Notes: generated from the sequence alone by a model not told the origin. Positions 1 to 29,892 are shown, numbered from the stretch's first letter. The stretch is DNA of 29,892 nucleotides from an uncultured archaeon (GCA_965368285.1 CBDUMJ010000001.1:1-29892), one strand, 5' to 3'. Made by a program: numbers and translations.

Positions 1-1
1 T

Positions 2-67
2 CAAGCAGAAGACGGCATACGAGATGTAGAGAGGTCTCGTGGGCTCGGAGATGTGTATAAGAGACAG
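2..67 (+). other. Illumina Nextera P7 adapter + i7 index + transposase read-2 sequence (sequencing artefact)
   Basis: 2-25 CAAGCAGAAGACGGCATACGAGAT (P7), 26-33 GTAGAGAG (index), 34-67 GTCTCGTGGGCTCGGAGATGTGTATAAGAGACAG; gives the artefact peptide CLLYTSPSPRDLSTSRMPSSA on the minus strand. Confidence 0.99.
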
Positions 68-618
68 GTTTTATAATGACTCACGTCACGGAGGGGAAAG
101 TAATCCTTGAGTCTCATTACATGTCTTCTCCAAATAGGATCATCCACAGTCATCCATTCCGCACCCTTCTTTTCTAAAAACCTGGAAAACCCTTTTATAG
201 CCCGAAAGGATGCTTCAAGAGTAGCTCCGCTTGTAACCGCTAAAAGTTGACCCAGAGCTTTGTACGATTTGGTAGGCGGACGCTTTTTGAAAATAGGAAT
301 CCTACGACCCTTGTACGTTATCCACTTTATGATGTCCTCTTTTGGTCTGAGGGTACGACGAGTTAAGTCCTCTAATGGTCCAAAAAGCTCTGTTGGTTTA
401 AAATCCGGTTTTGGTTCAAACACGTAATCTCCCACTTGGTTGCGGAACACAGTAACATGCGGTATGAACCCTTCTATTATGTCACTTGGGATCCCTTCAG
501 GGAATGCTGGGCATGTAAAAGTCTGAGGGTTAAAGTGTTTACATCCGTAACATAAAAAAACGACCCTCCAATCAGGCGGAAGTATCCCAAAAAGTTCGTC
601 TAAAGCACTGTTCATCAC
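68..618 (-). CDS. 3'-truncated phage protein with N-terminal Cys/His domain (CxxCxH...CxAFPxGIP...H) and a WITxxGxxIPI motif
   Basis: ORF track; CYGCKH, TCPAFPEGIP and WITYKGRRIPI motifs; start overlaps stop of 615-1220; true C-terminus replaced by adapter. Confidence 0.7.
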
Positions 619-19093: not shown

Positions 19094-19702
19094 ATGAAAG
19101 AACTCCTTAAGGAAATCCGAAAGTTGAAGTATAACAAGATTGTGTGTGTGGGGTCAAACAAGGTCTCCACACTACACTTGAAGTGCATGGATCATGACTT
19201 TCTGTTTAGGAGCGTGAACGGGAGAAGAAAGATGCCGAAGTCTATTGGAGCAGCACTGGTATATTTAATAAAGAACGGTTACGTTCAACTCAAACCGACA
19301 CACGCGGGGTATGAATTTGCGAGTCGTGCGCTAGGAGCATATGAACTAGAAGAAATGAGGAAACGTGAGATAGCTAAGGAACGGAGGCGTATACGATCGA
19401 TTGTGCTGAGAGGTAAGTTCAAGTTGGATGAGATTGCTAACCGTAAGTATAACGCTACCATTTTTGGTCACTACGACGAAGGTGTAATGGTTACGGCGTT
19501 TGAATACGGGCGTTATGTGAAGTTGCGGAAGGGAGATATAATGACGTTTGTAGGATCAGGGAAGCTCTACAATAAGCTGCTAAACGACATTACTACTGCT
19601 CTCAGGTCACCCAAAGGAAGGTTGTGGTTGGTTAAAGCTGGGGTTGGACATTTAGAACGTTACCTCAGACCAAAGGATACGTTAAAGGGCGGCGGCTCCT
19701 AA
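19094..19702 (+). CDS. Paralog family B member 1 (winged-helix-like N-terminal part)
   Basis: Aligns end to end with 22066-22665 (LKCM..DF, LIK.GY...PT.AG.EFA, GHY, KL.KG, SP.G..WL.K). Confidence 0.85.
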   Translation: MKELLKEIRKLKYNKIVCVGSNKVSTLHLKCMDHDFLFRSVNGRRKMPKSIGAALVYLIKNGYVQLKPTHAGYEFASRALGAYELEEMRKREIAKERRRIRSIVLRGKFKLDEIANRKYNATIFGHYDEGVMVTAFEYGRYVKLRKGDIMTFVGSGKLYNKLLNDITTALRSPKGRLWLVKAGVGHLERYLRPKDTLKGGGS

Positions 19703-20828: not shown

Positions 20829-20994
20829 AAAAGACTTTGTAGAAGTAAAAGCGGTGTATGAGAGGGACACAAAAAGATACCACCGGTTCAATATCGAGTC
20901 TGAAGAGGTAACGGGTGTGGTATATGTAAAAAGGGATGCTGAACTGCCCAGAGAAGTGCGAGTTAAACTTACAGTAGAGGGTGACAAAGAGTAA
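20821..20994 (+). CDS. Small beta-rich phage protein
   Basis: AGGAGGTGA SD before ATG 20821; YERDTKRYHRF...TGVVYV. Confidence 0.7.
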   Translation: MGRKDFVEVKAVYERDTKRYHRFNIESEEVTGVVYVKRDAELPREVRVKLTVEGDKE

Positions 20995-21673
20995 ACACTT
21001 TCTAAGTGTGGAGAGTCTGATCTGGGGGTGCTTCAGTATGTCAAAAGGAATTCGCCGAGGTCTAAAGATGATCGATTATTCATGCGCCGAACTTAGGAAG
21101 GCGGAAGAGAGTCTTTTATCACAGATTCATCCTGCTGTTGTGTTGGAGACAATATTGTTTGTCGCACCTTCGGTTCAGTTTAAAACACGATTGCCTGATG
21201 ATGTGCTAGTTGAGGTGTTTTTTGCTGAGTCTAATAAGGTTAAAGTGAACTTCCCTCGCCTTACAGTCCCAGGTACACCAGTATGTCTAGAAAGACACGA
21301 CATACGATCTGTAACTCTCGTTAAGTTAAAGGACTTGTTGTGTGGTATAACTGCACCTCAACGTCGTTTACTAAAGCTTAATAGCCTGTGGACTGGGTAT
21401 CTAAAGACATGGCGCCAGGCCACACCATATTTGAAACGTGTTAATTTTGAAGTACAACGCGCATACTGGGATTGTCGTAAGAATCCTAGGCTCGCCTCAA
21501 ATCCTCCTTCGTTTGGAATTCAAGGATCACGTATCCTTCTCCCACTTGATGTAGTACAGCAAGCTGAGTTACAGTGGTGTGTGTGCCTTTTCAACGAATG
21601 TTATGGAGGCCACGTCATCCAAAAGTGGGAGGAGTTCTGTGCTCATTATCCTAGTCCATGGTATGAACGTTAA
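20981..21673 (+). CDS. Hypothetical protein (start uncertain)
   Basis: 230-aa ORF on the gene-dense strand. Confidence 0.65.
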   Translation: MTKSKHFLSVESLIWGCFSMSKGIRRGLKMIDYSCAELRKAEESLLSQIHPAVVLETILFVAPSVQFKTRLPDDVLVEVFFAESNKVKVNFPRLTVPGTPVCLERHDIRSVTLVKLKDLLCGITAPQRRLLKLNSLWTGYLKTWRQATPYLKRVNFEVQRAYWDCRKNPRLASNPPSFGIQGSRILLPLDVVQQAELQWCVCLFNECYGGHVIQKWEEFCAHYPSPWYER

Positions 21674-21703: not shown

Positions 21704-22069
21704 GTGAATGAAGCGATGGTAACCGTGTTTAATGAGGAGGGGCGCCCGTTAATTACCATATACAAGCATTACGGAGGTCACCCGGAAGGTCTGGGTGTGT
21801 TCTTAAGGCGTTTCTTAAAGGATAGGACAGTTATACGTGGTAACCCAACTCCTGAGCTGAGAGATCGCTTGAAGATGTCGAATGGTATGGGTGATCTCGC
21901 GGCTCAGTTAATTTGTGAACTCAAGAAGAAATCGTTCGTAGGTGACGTCTATATAAGTCCTATAGGGATTAATATGGGAGTGAAATACACTTACAATATT
22001 AGGTTTGGTGGTTATGGGCATCCTGTAACCTTAGAGGTACGTAAAACACAATATGGAGAGGAATCATGA
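21704..22069 (+). CDS. Conserved hypothetical phage protein
   Basis: IYKHYGGHPEGLG...FL...NGMGDLAAQL resembles a pattern I recall from uncharacterised phage proteins (YxHxDGYP...NGMGCLAAQL). Confidence 0.7.
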   Translation: MNEAMVTVFNEEGRPLITIYKHYGGHPEGLGVFLRRFLKDRTVIRGNPTPELRDRLKMSNGMGDLAAQLICELKKKSFVGDVYISPIGINMGVKYTYNIRFGGYGHPVTLEVRKTQYGEES

Positions 22070-22665
22070 AAGAAAAATTGAAGAATGTATACCTGCGTGT
22101 AGAAGATGGAACATGGGTTTCTCCCACAGTATTGAAGTGTATGCACTCCGACTTTGTACGGAAGAGTGTTGATCGAACAGGGATGCCTTCATCTATAAGT
22201 AGTGCTTTGGCGTTTCTAATAAAGAAGGGATACATTGAAATACACCCGACGCGAGCCGGGCGTGAGTTTGCAGACAGGTTCATGAGGCTGTACGAGCAGA
22301 GAGAAAGGAAGCTGGTTGACGCGACTAAAGTGCGGAGACAAATGCGTCATACCGCTCTAAAAGGGACGTTTTGTTTAGATGAAATCATTCCTAGTGAAGC
22401 CCCTAGTGATCCAAATGTAACTATTTGTGGGCATTATGAAGATGATGTCAGAGTTACAGTGACTTCGATTTATAAATACATCAAACTCAAGAAAGGACAC
22501 ATAGTGTCGTATGTAGACAAGGGAAAGCTTTATGATAAGATAATAACTGACGTCTCTACTGTACTGATAGAGTCACCTGAAGGGAAGATGTGGTTACTTA
22601 AAGTTGGTGTAAGCCAACTGAAGTGGTTCGTGAATTGGTATAGATCACGTAAGACTGTTAGATAA
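22066..22665 (+). CDS. Paralog family B member 2
   Basis: Aligns with 19094-19702; ATGA overlap. Confidence 0.85.
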   Translation: MKEKLKNVYLRVEDGTWVSPTVLKCMHSDFVRKSVDRTGMPSSISSALAFLIKKGYIEIHPTRAGREFADRFMRLYEQRERKLVDATKVRRQMRHTALKGTFCLDEIIPSEAPSDPNVTICGHYEDDVRVTVTSIYKYIKLKKGHIVSYVDKGKLYDKIITDVSTVLIESPEGKMWLLKVGVSQLKWFVNWYRSRKTVR

Positions 22666-22888: not shown

Positions 22889-22915
22889 AGTAAGCCTTCT
22901 TGGAAGTCTGGTTTG

Positions 22916-23245
22916 ATGCGAGTGTTAACTTCTATATTGTCACGTGCTGTGCCGGATGTGCGAGTTGAATCAGTGGAAATAGTTGAATCGGCGATCAGGG
23001 CGTGGTGCTGGATCCAGATCAGACCAAATCATGAGAAGTACTGGGAGCGGTTCGTGGAACTTTACCCGCACTGGAAGCGAGTGGGCTTTAAGTATGGTCA
23101 TTTGGATCTCGGGGCTACTCCTACATTTCCTTCACGGTTTTTGTTAATGGGTTGGTTATCAGAGGTGTTAGGTTTAACACAAGGAGAGAAAAAGCTTTTA
23201 TACCTCAATCTAGGACACAATTGTGATATGTTTACTAACCGTTAA
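22916..23245 (+). CDS. Paralog family A member (isolated copy)
   Basis: LSRAVPDVRVESVEIV...PNHEKYWERF...WLSEVLGLTQGEKKLL. Confidence 0.85.
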   Translation: MRVLTSILSRAVPDVRVESVEIVESAIRAWCWIQIRPNHEKYWERFVELYPHWKRVGFKYGHLDLGATPTFPSRFLLMGWLSEVLGLTQGEKKLLYLNLGHNCDMFTNR

Positions 23246-24870: not shown

Positions 24871-25104
24871 GTGTTGAAGGAGGAGATTTTAAAGATTTTA
24901 GAATCGAGTACAGGCGACCTTGAGGAAGTCGCGATCAAGATAGAGAACCTTGTGTTGTCAATCATTCCTCATAGGGAGGTGTATGATAGAGACGATGTGA
25001 CGAACCCAGACTTTGCTACTACATGTGCGTTTAAAGACGGATGGAATGATTGTATAGATGAGATGATGAGGAGAATTGAGGATGAGGAAGAGAGTAGTGA
25101 TTGA
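24871..25104 (+). CDS. Small acidic phage protein
   Basis: AGGAG SD; GWNDCIDE motif. Confidence 0.7.
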   Translation: MLKEEILKILESSTGDLEEVAIKIENLVLSIIPHREVYDRDDVTNPDFATTCAFKDGWNDCIDEMMRRIEDEEESSD

Positions 25105-25357
25105 TGTTCACAAAGCAATTCCTATAAAGGACTTGGATTTGGTGTTGCAGATATGGGTAGACGAGATTAGACGTAATTTTGGCGTTGAAGTAGTTGAAAC
25201 AGGTACATTAGCTATCTATGGTGACATGCTGTATATTGCGGATGACGCGCCACTCACAGTAGAGGGCACTGACGAGGACATTAAAAGGTTTATGGACGTA
25301 TTGGGCCTTACTGATATTATAAAAGAAGAGTCCAGTGAGAGCGGAGCGGTCGATTAG
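25076..25357 (+). CDS. Hypothetical protein (true start possibly GTG 25097)
   Basis: ORF on the gene-dense strand, overlapping neighbours. Confidence 0.65.
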   Translation: MRMRKRVVIDVHKAIPIKDLDLVLQIWVDEIRRNFGVEVVETGTLAIYGDMLYIADDAPLTVEGTDEDIKRFMDVLGLTDIIKEESSESGAVD

Positions 25358-25706
25358 GGCGCGTAAGAGACAGTGGATGCGGAGAGTTGTTTTACGGGCC
25401 ACATTTAATCTAGATGAGGTTACAAGAGGAGTACAAGGAGATTTAGTAATCTATGGTCATTACAATAAAGTTAAGGCAGTTGTAAGTTATCAACATGTGT
25501 CAAACTATGATTTTGCTCATGTTGTCCTACAACACGATGATGTCTCAACCGCCTCATATTACGGTGAGTGCTGTAGGAAGGTACTGGCAGACGTGCTTCA
25601 CGTGATAAAGGAGACGAGCAAAGGGCGTCTGTACTTGTTGAAAGAGGATTATTTACGACGTTTCGTTATTACTGTAGAGAAATGGATAAAGAATCGAACG
25701 TTGTAG
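25335..25706 (+). CDS. Paralog family B member 3 (C-terminal domain only)
   Basis: MRRVVLRATFNLDEV...IYGHY...SKGRLYLLK aligns with the C-halves of 19094 and 22066. Confidence 0.75.
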   Translation: MRAERSIRARKRQWMRRVVLRATFNLDEVTRGVQGDLVIYGHYNKVKAVVSYQHVSNYDFAHVVLQHDDVSTASYYGECCRKVLADVLHVIKETSKGRLYLLKEDYLRRFVITVEKWIKNRTL

Positions 25707-26038
25707 AAGGCATCATTCCATCTAACATTCAGACTTGGGTAGATAGCATCTTGGAAGAAGTGTCGGATGAGGTCGGAAAGGAAGAGAATGGAGAATTCCT
25801 TTTACTCTATGAGGGGTGGAGCGATATATGTGTGAGTGAAGTAACTGACCCTTTAAAGTCTGATAAGGAAAATGAAGATGCTTGTTATGCGTTTGCTGAA
25901 GAGCAAAGTGACAAAGTTATTGAAGAGTGGGTTGTGGAATATACTGGATACCAGTTAGTTCAGTGTGGGTACGAGCGAAGGTTAGGACTTTATGGAGTCA
26001 CGTGGGCTCTGTTTAAGAAGGTTGACGATGGAGTGTAG
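25682..26038 (+). CDS. Acidic hypothetical protein
   Basis: 118-aa ORF overlapping neighbours. Confidence 0.7.
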   Translation: MDKESNVVEGIIPSNIQTWVDSILEEVSDEVGKEENGEFLLLYEGWSDICVSEVTDPLKSDKENEDACYAFAEEQSDKVIEEWVVEYTGYQLVQCGYERRLGLYGVTWALFKKVDDGV

Positions 26039-26702
26039 GGGTTTAAGAGTAATTAGTGTTCGTGAAATAATTAAGAAGCGGTTTGGAGTCGGATGGGAGA
26101 CGCTAGGCGCTTTGGTAAACAATGGTTACCTTGAGATAGGCTCGACTTTTGAGCCTGTGACTGATATGACGGATATTCACCTTGCCTGTGTATGGGAGGA
26201 TGATCACCTCCCTTGTGTCTCTCTTTTCTTCCGCGACGAGAAAGGCAGGTTGCGTTACGCAGAAATCCTATACAATGAATTTGGACCGGGTATGGTGGTA
26301 TATGCTCCTGGTTCGGATGTCGCGAAAAAGGATTTGATTCGTGAGGTGAATCGTTTCTATAGTTATGGGGGACGGTCTGGCAAAGATGTGATTGGGGATT
26401 GGGGTTCCTCGGATGCATATGTCTGCCGGGATGGAGGTAGATATTTCACGGTTGTGGATAGTCGTCAAATGGGAGTAAAGGTAGCTTTTTGTGGCGTTGA
26501 GGATCTTCACCTGTTTAGAGGGAGCGTTGAGTGGCGGATGAAGACCGACGTTGGAGTTTGGATTATTGAAGCCACTTTTGACACACCAACTGATGCGCTG
26601 GCGTGGTATTTATATAAAGGAGGGCTGGCGAAGCGTGATGAAGCACGTCAGATAGCCAGACTTTTGTTGATATTAAAGGGCTCACGGGTTTTACGAACAT
26701 AG
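26028..26702 (+). CDS. Paralog family C member 2 with C-terminal extension
   Basis: MTDIHLACVWEDDHLPCVSLFFRDEKGRLRYAEILY; start could be 25992 or 26028. Confidence 0.8.
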   Translation: MECRGLRVISVREIIKKRFGVGWETLGALVNNGYLEIGSTFEPVTDMTDIHLACVWEDDHLPCVSLFFRDEKGRLRYAEILYNEFGPGMVVYAPGSDVAKKDLIREVNRFYSYGGRSGKDVIGDWGSSDAYVCRDGGRYFTVVDSRQMGVKVAFCGVEDLHLFRGSVEWRMKTDVGVWIIEATFDTPTDALAWYLYKGGLAKRDEARQIARLLLILKGSRVLRT

Positions 26703-26714
26703 AAGGAGGGGGAA

Positions 26715-26918
26715 ATGGAGGAGAGATTTTTCTTACTGGAAGAAGTTAAAGATGGAGTTTGTATCATTCTCGACGAAGTGCTTACTAAAGTAGAGAGGGC
26801 TGGTGAGAGGAAGGTTGTTGTGAGGGATGTGGTGAAGATAGAAGGACTTGAGTTGCCGTGGGAGGAGAAGGTAACGGTTATCGTAGGAAAAGATGGTAGG
26901 TTGTATTTACCTGTGTAG
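26715..26918 (+). CDS. Hypothetical protein
   Basis: AAGGAGG SD. Confidence 0.7.
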   Translation: MEERFFLLEEVKDGVCIILDEVLTKVERAGERKVVVRDVVKIEGLELPWEEKVTVIVGKDGRLYLPV

Positions 26919-26929
26919 AGGTGAGTGAA

Positions 26930-27106
26930 ATGAGTAAAATAAGTGATGAAGCTATGATGTACCATGCTGCTCAATTTATGGAGAAATCCTTAACTGCTTT
27001 TGAGAAGAAGCGTATAGGGAAAGAGGGTCATTTTGAAAAAGAGGTAAAAAGGAGGAGAAAGAGAAATAAGTTAGCGCGATTAAGCCGAAGGCGTAATCGT
27101 CGGTAA
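26930..27106 (+). CDS. Small protein with very basic C-terminal tail
   Basis: KRRRKRNKLARLSRRRNRR; GAGGTGA SD. Confidence 0.7.
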   Translation: MSKISDEAMMYHAAQFMEKSLTAFEKKRIGKEGHFEKEVKRRRKRNKLARLSRRRNRR

Positions 27107-27127
27107 TACAAGCTGAAGGAGGGAAAA

Positions 27128-27469
27128 ATGAGAGTTGACAGATTCGAAATTGAGCGGGGAGTAACTGGAGTTACTGTTAGGGTCGAGGTTTCCACTGAGG
27201 TTGAGGTTAGGTTTGATATTTTAGTGCATCGGGAACTTGTTGCGGGTTTTAACTATGATGATAAAAGAAAGTTGGAGGGCGAGGAAAGCTTCGTCGAGCT
27301 TCGCTTTAGGACATCTGCCTTACAGAACTTGAACCAAGCGAAGCGCGCTGCCCAAGAGATAAAGGCGATCTTAGATGAAGTGAAGCGCAAAGAGCAGAAT
27401 GGGTTGGAATGGCTGCGAGTGGTTGAGGATTACTTAAGGAAGGAGTTTGAAGGACTTGTTACGGGTTAA
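27128..27469 (+). CDS. Paralog pair D member 1
   Basis: GVTVRV...VRF...GF...D...LEG...F aligns with the next gene; AAGGAGG SD. Confidence 0.8.
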   Translation: MRVDRFEIERGVTGVTVRVEVSTEVEVRFDILVHRELVAGFNYDDKRKLEGEESFVELRFRTSALQNLNQAKRAAQEIKAILDEVKRKEQNGLEWLRVVEDYLRKEFEGLVTG

Positions 27470-27819
27470 TGGGGGAGAATGTTTACGTTAAGGAGGTAAA
27501 GATGAGACGTACTTTGATGATTAAGAATGATAAGCAAGGTGTACGCGTTTCGGTGACGTTTGTGATGGCTAAGGCAGTCAGATTTGAGGGACCGATTAAG
27601 TTGGAAGTCCTGCAAGGGTTTACTAAGACGGATGAAGATGCGCTTAAAGGTAAAGCTGATTTTTGCACACTCGATTTGGTATCGGAAGTGGTTAAGAGTG
27701 TTGTAGATGCAAAGAAGGTGAAGGGGGAGTTGGCTAGGGTCAAACGCTGCTTAGAAGATTTAGAGTCGGAAGTGGTGACATTAGACAATTCTATAGAGGA
27801 AACCTTGTTTGGTGACTAA
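27469..27819 (+). CDS. Paralog pair D member 2
   Basis: TAATG overlap; GVRVSV...VRF...GF...D...LKG...F. Confidence 0.8.
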   Translation: MGENVYVKEVKMRRTLMIKNDKQGVRVSVTFVMAKAVRFEGPIKLEVLQGFTKTDEDALKGKADFCTLDLVSEVVKSVVDAKKVKGELARVKRCLEDLESEVVTLDNSIEETLFGD

Positions 27820-27837
27820 TAAACTGGAGGAAAGGCT

Positions 27838-28290
27838 ATGAAGTGCTACAGAATCGCGGTTAGGGGGGTTATTAGGACTCCTATTCAGTCTGTTGAAGAT
27901 TTCTATGAGGAATTGTACCAGATATTTCAGGACTATTTCGGTCCTGATGTTTGTGGTAGCCTAACTTTTGATGTAGAGCCGATTAGTGGTCAAGTTGTTA
28001 ACCCACAAAAACGCTGGGTGAAGTTACGGCGCATTGAGGAGTATAAAGACCTTAAAGAGTGTGGTTATAACCACGTAGTTGATAAATTAGGTTACACTCT
28101 TGATGATTTACGTGGGTGCTACGTGGATTGTGACGATCGCTATCATTTGTCAGTAGAACCTTCCGGTGTGGAACCGGTTACATTTGTGCATGTAACGAAT
28201 CATGGATGCTTTTTTAGGAACGTGACCGCAGTTAAAGTTGACACGGACTTATACCTTAGCGAGGAGGACTTTTCTGGTTGGAATTGTTAA
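27838..28290 (+). CDS. Hypothetical protein
   Basis: GGAGG SD. Confidence 0.75.
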   Translation: MKCYRIAVRGVIRTPIQSVEDFYEELYQIFQDYFGPDVCGSLTFDVEPISGQVVNPQKRWVKLRRIEEYKDLKECGYNHVVDKLGYTLDDLRGCYVDCDDRYHLSVEPSGVEPVTFVHVTNHGCFFRNVTAVKVDTDLYLSEEDFSGWNC

Positions 28291-28577
28291 CTCGGCTATT
28301 GTCACGTGCTGTGCCTGACGCTCGTGTCGAGTTAGTAGAGATAGCTCGTGTTGATAATAGGTTTTATATACACATTACTCCTAACCATTTTAGGTACTGG
28401 GGTCGGTTCAGAAGAAGGTACTTTTACAGTATGGATCTGGCGCAAGAACGTGGCGCAAGGGTTTTGCACACTGCTTGTCCAGAGTTTCATACAAAAAGGG
28501 ACTTAATTGACTGGTTGTCGGACACGTTGAAGTTAACACAAGGTGAGCGTAATCTTTTACATCTTTCTATAAAGTAG
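28278..28577 (+). CDS. Paralog family A, tandem copy 1
   Basis: LSRAVP...PNHFRYWGRF...CPEF...WLSDTLKLTQGERNLL. Confidence 0.85.
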   Translation: MELLTRLLSRAVPDARVELVEIARVDNRFYIHITPNHFRYWGRFRRRYFYSMDLAQERGARVLHTACPEFHTKRDLIDWLSDTLKLTQGERNLLHLSIK

Positions 28578-28586
28578 TGCTACAAA

Positions 28587-28886
28587 ATGTTAACGACAGT
28601 ACTAAGTCGGGCCGTGCCAGATGTATACGTTGAGTCAGCAGAAATAGTTAAATCATCAGCCAGAGCAGTGTGCTGGATCCGAGTTAGCCCAAATCATGAC
28701 AGGTATTGGAAGCGGTTCAAAGAGGTGTACCCTTATTGTTTGTGTCTGGCGCAAGAGTGCGGCGCGGAAATTAGACTCACTGCTTGCCCAGAGTTTTGCG
28801 CAAGAGAGGCCCTGATTGATTGGCTGTCGGATACTTTGCGCTTGACACAAGGGGAGAGAAATTTGTTGCATTTAATGAAGTTATGA
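28587..28886 (+). CDS. Paralog family A, tandem copy 2
   Basis: LSRAVP...PNHDRYWKRF...CPEF...WLSDTLRLTQGERNLL. Confidence 0.85.
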   Translation: MLTTVLSRAVPDVYVESAEIVKSSARAVCWIRVSPNHDRYWKRFKEVYPYCLCLAQECGAEIRLTACPEFCAREALIDWLSDTLRLTQGERNLLHLMKL

Positions 28887-29200
28887 TGATGCAGTCATTT
28901 TTTCGGATGTTAGTTCCGGATGTTTGTGTTGAGTCAGTACGTGTGGTAAATGCATATATGGGGTACTACTTACTTGTTCAACCGGATCATCAGGAATACT
29001 GGATTCGGTTCCGGAATGAATTCCCCGAGCTTATAACTTTGGCGTGCAGAGATTATGGTGCTTCGGCGAGGAGAGTAGAAGATGATCTTCCGTACCTTTG
29101 CCCCGTGTTTGCTTCGAAGGAGGACTTGATCGGGTGGTTGACGGTTATATTTCGTTTAACACGAGGTGAAAAAAACTTGTTGCGACTTTGTATGGCTTAA
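28883..29200 (+). CDS. Paralog family A, tandem copy 3
   Basis: Likely ATG 28883 (ATGA overlap); LVPDV...PDHQEYWIRF...CPVF...WLTVIFRLTRGEKNLL. Confidence 0.85.
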   Translation: MMMQSFFRMLVPDVCVESVRVVNAYMGYYLLVQPDHQEYWIRFRNEFPELITLACRDYGASARRVEDDLPYLCPVFASKEDLIGWLTVIFRLTRGEKNLLRLCMA

Positions 29201-29529
29201 TGCAATTATTGGTTAACATACTGTCACGTGCGGTATCTGGTGTACTTGTCAGTTTCGCGTCGATTGCGACATCGACAAAGAGTAAACAGTACTTCATTGC
29301 GGTTACACCAGATCACGCGGAGTACTGGGGGCGGTTTAAAGAGCGGTACCCTGATAGCATCTACTTAGCGCGAAGCCGTGGCGCGAGGGTTGATGATGTT
29401 GCTTGCCCAGAATTTACCACAGTGACGGACTTGTTGAATTGGTTGTCAGATGTATTAGGTTTAACGCAAGGAGAGAGGAAGCTATTGCGTTTTTGTAGTA
29501 ATGTGGTGAGATGTCATATGTTAGTGTAA
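29200..29529 (+). CDS. Paralog family A, tandem copy 4
   Basis: Likely ATG 29200 (TAATG overlap); LSRAV...PDHAEYWGRF...CPEF...WLSDVLGLTQGERKLL. Confidence 0.85.
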   Translation: MQLLVNILSRAVSGVLVSFASIATSTKSKQYFIAVTPDHAEYWGRFKERYPDSIYLARSRGARVDDVACPEFTTVTDLLNWLSDVLGLTQGERKLLRFCSNVVRCHMLV

Positions 29530-29542
29530 TTAGGAGTGATTA

Positions 29543-29875
29543 TTGATTCGGTCAGCGTTACAGAGGTTGGTTCCAGATGTGTGTGTTGATTCGGTAGAGA
29601 TACGAACCGGTTATGGGTGCCGGCTTTACCTTCAGGTTTCCCCTGAGCACTTCAAGTACTGGACTCGATTCCAGGTCAGGTATCCTGAATTTATTTTTCT
29701 GGCGTGTAAAAGATATGGTGCGTTAACTAGGTCGGAAGGCCTCACGTGTCTTTGTCCTGAGTTTCTTTTGAAGAGGGATTTGCTTGGATGGTTGGCGTGC
29801 ATAGCGAGCGCGACGCAGAAAAAGCGTAACTTCTTGCGTTTCTATATGAGGACACAGTCATGTCACAGTTATTAA
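29543..29875 (+). CDS. Paralog family A, tandem copy 5
   Basis: LVPDV...PEHFKYWTRF...CPEF...DLLGWL; AGGAG SD. Confidence 0.85.
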   Translation: MIRSALQRLVPDVCVDSVEIRTGYGCRLYLQVSPEHFKYWTRFQVRYPEFIFLACKRYGALTRSEGLTCLCPEFLLKRDLLGWLACIASATQKKRNFLRFYMRTQSCHSY

Positions 29876-29892
29876 CTTTCCTGATGTAACGT

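Follow-up and report, generated by a model that had tools for sequence, protein, structure and literature searches.

The DNA analysed here, hereafter the window, is a stretch of 29,892 nucleotides (nt) corresponding to the whole of contig C1 of assembly GCA_965368285.1 (G000), a 540-contig metagenome bin. At its end it carries the first part of a large tandem array of diverged genes, each coding for a small protein of about 100 amino acids (aa), whose sequences point to an old retained repertoire with turnover at the margin, and not to a currently expanding, fast-evolving family. The array appears to belong to a tailed virus, roughly 130-150 kb in size, of deep-sea hydrothermal-vent communities. 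Viral tandem multigene families are a known kind of arrangement, and the protein family described here is absent from every library searched. The reading that we favour, with a probability of roughly 0.4, is that the array would provide the virus with a set of specific binders, made by coupled translation and serving host takeover or anti-defence.

Anatomy and extent of the array

A preliminary description of this DNA had reported five tandem paralogs of about 100 aa at 28278-29875 and a sixth copy near 22916, built on a conserved scaffold with variable segments. All of this stands: the six copies align over their full length, with 37-58% identity to copy 1, 16 invariant columns and two variable segments, and the profile made from them finds each one in the genome at E values of 1e-43 to 1e-48, which excludes chance similarity. 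Specifically, on the plus strand, copy 1 (28278..28577, 99 aa) has a TTG start at 28278, preceded by the Shine-Dalgarno site GAGGAGG, and shares 13 nt with the end of the upstream gene, and copy 2 (28587..28886, 99 aa, ATG at 28587) is the copy used for the AlphaFold model discussed below. Copy 3 (28883..29200, 105 aa, ATG at 28883) overlaps copy 2 in an ATGA, and copy 4 (29200..29529, 109 aa) overlaps copy 3 in a TAATG, both junctions being as first described; for copy 4, the ATG at 29200 is a more plausible start than the TTG at 29188 of the longest open reading frame (ORF). Copy 5 (29543..29875, 110 aa) has a TTG start behind TAGGAGTG, and copy 6 (29860..29892, ATG at 29860) is cut by the contig end, so that the array does reach the end of the window. 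The isolated copy (22913..23245, plus strand, about 107-110 aa, profile E 1.3e-43) lies 5 kb upstream of the array and has its start at 22913.

Extending the contig leads to contig C2 of the same bin, and the main array of G000 then amounts to 27 units by profile matches, 25 of them intact and two frameshifted, plus a separate short relic. In particular, C2 ends with about 22 further tandem copies (minus strand) and holds one isolated copy, and contig C21 has one weak family copy near its end. The continuation of copy 6 at the head of the reverse-complemented C2 was established by a three-way alignment of the end of C1, L034 and the reverse-complemented C2, and blastn places C1 and C2 on one locus of L034 (ENA) and L035 (JGI), independent metagenome contigs that span the entire array locus. 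Positions 24922-29892 of the window match L034 and L035 at 99%, and next to this part the reverse-complemented C2 aligns at 97.5%. One piece of this locus is present in both contigs, as the final 160 nt of C1 and the initial 160 nt of the reverse-complemented C2, at about 85% identity, and therefore two haplotypes broke the assembly at this place. Within 29876-29892, the last dozen or so bases carry an indel with respect to L034 and the reverse-complemented C2, and copy 6 thereby acquires a stop near its beginning; an error at the contig end, where the two haplotypes meet, is the probable cause.

The same array was found in further assemblies with different numbers of units, again by profile matches: 26 in L034 and L035, 32 in L149 and in the 152.9-kb contig L150, and 34 in the IMG/VR record G401 (131,001 bp, 91% complete by CheckV). 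In G401 the array, an isolated copy and a three-copy cluster add up to 38 copies and take 9.7% of the DNA, and a share of about a tenth of a 131-kb genome for one family is unusually high. All array units are co-directional and head-to-tail, and the array is always bounded by the same 150-aa gene and by three small genes, beyond which lie a phage metallopeptidase (PF18894), a MoxR-type ATPase and a VWA/DUF2201 protein. The 150-aa gene (27838..28290 in the window, plus strand), which precedes the array also in L034, L035, L149 and L150, is not a member: its comparison with the family gives an hhalign probability of 0.3%, and it has no match in Pfam, PHROGs or NCBIfam. The flanking genes were likewise rejected as cryptic family members by comparison with the family. 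The array is, in other words, a viral multigene family, with many diverged head-to-tail paralogs and a copy number varying between isolates.

The layout of the junctions suggests how these genes could be expressed. At most of them start and stop overlap by 1-16 nt or are separated by a gap of 2-13 nt, many ribosome-binding sites lie inside the tail of the preceding gene, and the internal Shine-Dalgarno sites are weak; the RGC-type tails of some copies coincide with ribosome-binding sites. The array shows no excess of promoter-like or terminator-like sites. With junctions this tight, translation of the paralogs would be coupled, and the array is probably read as one long transcript from which all paralogs are made together. 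That the array is a single giant gene that has been broken up, or that it uses an alternative genetic code, was ruled out, as all three kinds of stop codon are used and the frame changes between copies.

Protein family and predicted fold

The view that the family is not a known housekeeping or structural protein is borne out, as its members match no enzyme, DNA-binding or structural family in Pfam, PHROGs, NCBIfam, PADLOC or PDB sequences. Specifically, the best E value was 0.034 in Pfam, which falls short of all cut-offs, and 0.13 among PDB sequences; PHROGs gave nothing at E up to 1, NCBIfam gave no match and PADLOC matched 0 of 24 members. A profile search of 1.84 billion cluster representatives returned 103 matches, about 95 of which are real clusters of proteins of about 100 aa; six long repeat proteins (P0056, P0077, P0092, P0098, P0099 and P0103) were set aside as summed chance matches of unrelated repeats. 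The distant relatives that were traced lie on short virus-like metagenome contigs, often in multiple or tandem copies, and one of these contigs also encodes a GH108 lysozyme and a helicase. The ESM Atlas yielded only sub-threshold, unnamed clusters, a cultured-phage collection no DNA or protein match, and a single-protein scan of GTDB genomes no family match; no family copy was found in 400 genomes of the host bin's phylum or in five Bathyarchaeia genomes with distant terminase relatives. In the literature searched, the family was not found described.

The AlphaFold model of copy 2 is confident (predicted local distance difference test, pLDDT, 94.4; predicted template modelling score, pTM, 0.85) and consists of a helix (2-10), a hairpin (18-24/29-35) and four further helices (38-48, 52-58, 74-85 and 89-97). 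A 125-aa paralog whose hairpin carries an insertion (pLDDT 89.5) is modelled with two extra strands that yield a four-stranded sheet. The predicted alpha/beta core shared by the family is thus a single domain of an N-terminal helix, a beta-hairpin and four helices, with the conserved motifs PxHxxYWxRF, YPxW, CPEF and WL and with invariant Pro, Trp, Phe and Leu residues that hold the core. Variable columns cluster in two segments, that is, the hairpin tip (columns 25-29), predicted to grow into a four-stranded sheet in some copies, and the loop before CPEF (columns 61-69).

A fold match was defined, for a confident model, as a Foldseek E value of 0.001 or less or a template modelling (TM) score of 0.5 or more. 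Against the PDB, the best values for both models were E 0.11-0.15 with a TM score of about 0.3, and against BFVD the model of copy 2 reached a best E of 0.035 and a best TM score of 0.49, all short of these thresholds. The best rows, PII/GlnK-like and ribosomal protein S6-like folds, are alike in being small alpha/beta domains with a protruding beta-hairpin, but with E 0.1 or worse and TM about 0.3 they do not constitute a fold match. A protein of phage RaK2 returned by the Foldseek search is a chance-level match (TM 0.27), and the array family also lacks the F-Q motif. Judging from these models, the fold is apparently new, with no detectable relative.

The composition of the proteins bears on what they could do. 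A transmembrane-like segment occurs in one paralog only (2 of 87 sequences), and the rest are soluble by hydropathy. There are no invariant residues of a catalytic type; in particular, a family-wide catalytic Cys/His dyad was ruled out, as several copies have another residue in place of the Cys of CPEF, and at least one has another in place of the His. Isoelectric points (pI) lie between 5.3 and 9.9 (median 8.6), and DNA mimicry was ruled out because the proteins are not acidic. The same median would suit nucleic-acid-binding regulators or genome-coating proteins, in which case the array would be an expansion of small specific transcription factors or of structural DNA binders. In the same direction, the C-terminal L-T-x-G-E-R-x-L-L helix resembles, in our reading, the first helix of LuxR/sigma region 4 motifs, and a role of this kind has been proposed for the zinc-ribbon expansion of about 35 copies in Bacillus phage G (PMC7824862). 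However, the protein ends right after this helix, so that no helix-turn-helix (HTH) is completed, no Pfam DNA-binding family is matched at E up to 1, charge is not conserved across the pI range given above, and repeated DNA resembling an operator did not come to light, though no search aimed at it was made. We consider nucleic-acid binding an unlikely explanation of the family.

Where the variation falls is informative about a further possibility, namely that the genes encode precursor or scaffold peptides of a ribosomally synthesized and post-translationally modified peptide (RiPP), each peptide consisting of a long conserved leader and a short tail that varies at the C-terminus, with a radical-SAM enzyme as the maturase. 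One distant family member (L055, 1034-2694) lies directly downstream of a 442-aa radical SAM gene with a 4-nt overlap, and some tails contain Cys residues. The variation, however, is found in internal loops and not in a C-terminal core, the tails comprise 2-12 residues that in part encode the ribosome-binding site of the next gene, and the domain is predicted to be fully folded. Moreover, a radical SAM neighbour occurs in that one distant contig only, and the 442-aa protein has no homologue in G401 and only weak generic matches in G000, on other contigs. Such a natural product is accordingly a very remote prospect.

Age, turnover and selection of the copies

The paralogs are 23-63% identical to each other (median 43%), and in a tree built with 87 copies, taken from three genomes, almost all of them fall into ortholog triplets, with short tips and long branches between paralogs. 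Across four lineages, 23 ortholog groups are present as 1:1:1:1, and one young trio as 3:3:2:3; L150 lacks one group, six groups occur in the G401/L150 clade only, and one in G401 alone. The isolated copy at 22913..23245 also has an ortholog in G401 at the same relative place, with a ratio of nonsynonymous to synonymous substitution rates (dN/dS) of 0.14. Similarity between neighbours forms only a weak gradient along the array (48% vs 42.5%, permutation p 0.076).

Turnover takes place in single units. Six or seven copies are lineage-specific, and indels of one copy separate strains that are about 97% identical. G000 has one extra, chimeric copy relative to L034 and L035, and G401 has two extra copies relative to L150, its 97% relative. 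Two frameshifted copies are common to three assemblies and intact in G401, and one array copy is truncated in L034 and L035 only. In contigs of other vent samples, skips of 323-348 nt and a 306-nt back-step are seen at the young trio, these being contig-level data in which assembler effects are possible. The young trio itself (L032, part of C2, 3355-4339) is made of three adjacent copies, the middle one of which looks like a chimera of its neighbours, and it is here that a difference of exactly one unit is seen in other assemblies and samples. Taken as sequence patterns, these differences suggest that single array copies are dispensable.

This has consequences for the idea that the paralogs come together in a single large hetero-oligomer, for instance a shell, a scaffold or a filament, their fixed proportions resulting from translational coupling. 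The coupled polycistronic layout, the strongly conserved core and termini as possible interfaces, and the retention of 23 ortholog groups in all four lineages would all be compatible with an assembly, but the number of units differs (26, 27, 32 or 34), frameshifted or truncated copies occur in otherwise intact viruses, the array lies outside the morphogenesis module, and distant relatives have only 2-4 copies on the contigs examined. The apparent dispensability of single copies argues against an obligate assembly, and we regard this explanation as quite unlikely.

Selection on the copies was measured as dN/dS with the Nei-Gojobori method, comparing G000 with G401. The pooled value is 0.27 for 26 family pairs vs 0.17 for 29 neighbouring genes (Mann-Whitney p 0.0017), and by segment it is lowest at CPEF (0.08) and highest at the hairpin tip (0.39). 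Columns that vary among paralogs have a dN/dS of 0.33, vs 0.12 at conserved columns, and therefore the variable residues that belong to each paralog are kept by selection. The choice among synonymous codons at conserved residues is random from paralog to paralog, which places the conservation at the protein level; the randomised synonymous sites also rule out DNA-level cassettes or gene conversion.

The preliminary description had inferred an arms-race, expanding family. Copy number does vary between assemblies, but the rest of the claim is not upheld, the 23 groups in 1:1:1:1, the short tips of the tree and the dN/dS of 0.27 giving no sign that diversification is under way. The opposite picture, uniform purifying selection with a fixed copy number, is in turn right for selection, which is purifying throughout, but not for copy number.

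A putative binder repertoire, its virus and known systems

The array could work as follows. The 27 paralogous genes, of which those of the window are the first part, would form one co-directional, tightly packed operon, and each would give a soluble protein of about 100 residues, folded as a single domain on the shared predicted alpha/beta core and differing from copy to copy in two segments. The paralogs would be co-translated by coupling and hence made together, each keeping, under purifying selection, its own surface for a putative target. Jointly, they might neutralise or redirect different host proteins, involved in defence or relevant to takeover, or proteins of competing elements. The size and continuity of the array, the confident single-domain models, the two variable segments, the individually conserved paralogs, the constraint at the protein level, the dispensable copies, the overlapping or nearly abutting genes, the lack of any match to enzyme, DNA-binding or structural families, the near absence of transmembrane-like segments, the multiple or tandem copies in distant relatives and the precedents of African swine fever virus MGF360/505 (PMC8941908) and of archaeal-virus Acr paralogs (PMC11065993) are what argues for a binder repertoire, at the tentative level stated at the outset. 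In its most specific form, the array would be a natural binder library, that is, one stable scaffold of 100 residues, variable in two surface segments, in at least 26 individually conserved versions from one coupled operon, each version disarming a different host-defence or competitor protein; this form we hold to be doubtful.

Several points weigh on the other side. Arms-race binders often show positive selection, and by Nei-Gojobori no such signature was found, dN/dS exceeding 1 neither overall nor in any segment. The family has no similarity to known anti-defence or immunity families in Pfam, PHROGs and PADLOC, no dedicated anti-defence library having been searched. The flanking genes have no HTH domain and thus offer no linkage to an Aca-type HTH regulator, nor is there an excess of promoter-like sites. 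Coupled, possibly equimolar synthesis would fit a multi-subunit assembly too. Finally, host assignment failed, and therefore no target of the putative binders can be named.

A special case of the binder idea is a polyimmunity locus, in which each protein would neutralise a different toxin, either of host abortive-infection or toxin-antitoxin systems or of rival elements. Tandem diverged paralogs of a small domain are a hallmark of such loci (PMC3113570), and the virus encodes, in the window, a 1440-aa protein with portal and MuF matches. This gene, however, is 23 kb distant from the array; no toxin gene adjoins the array, whose flanks are the small genes of unknown function and the PF18894 metallopeptidase already mentioned, and no Pfam immunity family is matched. 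We attribute a small chance to this special case.

That the genes are viral, as the preliminary description had it, is supported by the portal-MuF fusion and by a large terminase (PHROG 38, E 8e-63), both in the window, which also encodes an epimerase and a ParB-like protein. No cultured phage has a terminase more than 26% identical to this one. Additional genes of G401 code for a helicase, SbcCD-like proteins and an anaerobic NrdD, and those of C2 and C21 for Ku, a QueE-like radical SAM enzyme (L031, in C2, 670-1341) and, at 1212-7593 of L033 (C21), a FolE2 GTP cyclohydrolase, a UDG-PolA fusion, a gp32-like protein and RecA. Together these enzymes look like a replication and modification module, one that suggests 7-deazaguanine DNA modification. 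In G401 no sigma factor was found, and a search there for a GH108 lysozyme was negative but also negative in all 14 control genomes and hence uninformative; no tRNAs were found. The DNA of 26000-29892, that is, the first part of the array and its upstream flank, is present in at least 13 hydrothermal-vent metagenome runs.

With regard to the host, Bathyarchaeia are one possibility and some other uncultured lineage of the vents is another. RpoB puts the bin in Bathyarchaeia, and the replication genes look bacterial. Family members at NCBI come from metagenome-assembled genomes labelled Deltaproteobacteria, Thorarchaeota, Bathyarchaeota and Desulfofervidus (P0112, P0113, P0117, P0120 and P0026 among the entries compared), and with such conflicting labels binning is no evidence of host. 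One single-contig Bathyarchaeia genome carries a terminase 34% identical to that of the virus (L146, G736:C1:1987496-1988527) and no family copy. The bin has only one CRISPR array, a small one at a contig end (G000:C86, 6727-7050) with five spacers and a 32-nt repeat that we take to be type I-C-like; none of the five spacers matches the virus contigs or the examined parts of G401.

Other features of this DNA were recorded along the way. Besides the array, the adjacent genes for 113-aa and 116-aa proteins at 27128-27819 are paralogous (28% identity, E 2e-6), 19094-19702 and 22066-22665 both match C2:4977-5555 at about 32%, and 20981-21673 has a 58% paralog at C2:11316-11855. The VWA/DUF2201 protein adjoining the MoxR ATPase is metallopeptidase-like and 750 aa long in L031 (C2, 13047-15299), where its Hint and LAGLIDADG matches indicate that it contains an intein; L149 and L150 have a 400-aa intein-free version of it, and G401 has another intein-bearing gene of 667 aa (L053, 6179-8182). 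Positions 1-67 of the window are an Illumina Nextera adapter with its index, present also at an end of most contigs of the assembly, and this adapter yields spurious protein matches for the terminal ORF at 1-618 (minus strand).

In general, tandem multigene families act as host-interaction repertoires in large eukaryotic DNA viruses and have rarely been described in prokaryotic viruses. In the present case, about a tenth of the genome of a mid-sized virus that recurs across many vent metagenomes is given over to a single family whose fold is apparently new, and the clean ortholog structure, a core of 23 groups and a variable margin, makes this family a tractable case for the upkeep and turnover of viral paralog repertoires. 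If the copies were specific inhibitors, they would provide a panel of about 30 probes for the defence and physiology of uncultured vent microbes, as well as a compact natural scaffold for binder engineering. If the binder-library idea were true, no larger anti-defence battery would be known from any prokaryotic virus.

Among known systems, the SUKH superfamily includes tandem arrays of immunity genes read as a panel against many toxins (PMC3113570). The array shares with them tandem diverged paralogs of a small domain, a binding domain in SUKH, but SUKH arrays hold up to about six genes on bacterial chromosomes, and the array described here has neither a profile match nor an adjoining toxin gene. 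Archaeal viruses can have multiple anti-CRISPR (Acr) paralogs per genome, such as the AcrID1 homologues of SIRV2, at least one of which is a proven defence inhibitor (PMC11065993). In both cases several diverged small paralogs, most of them uncharacterised, reside in one viral genome, but the SIRV2 set consists of few early genes at the ends of the genome, all monocistronic and each under a strong promoter of its own, whereas the array is made of 27 apparently coupled genes in mid-genome and has no homology to them. The zinc-ribbon family of Bacillus phage G, a lineage-specific expansion (PMC7824862), likewise comprises tens of tandem copies, old and diverged, of a single small protein that is uncharacterised, and it too occurs in a tailed phage; the family of the array is a different one, without a zinc ribbon, and resides in a far smaller genome (131 kb), of which it takes about 10%. 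Finally, the MGF360/505 genes of African swine fever virus are a viral paralog repertoire acting on host defence proteins, whose members are individually retained (PMC8941908). The array has no sequence or fold relation to them, and it encodes proteins of about 100 aa from what appears to be a translationally coupled operon of a prokaryotic virus; like MGF360/505, it consists of many diverged head-to-tail paralogs whose copy number differs between isolates.

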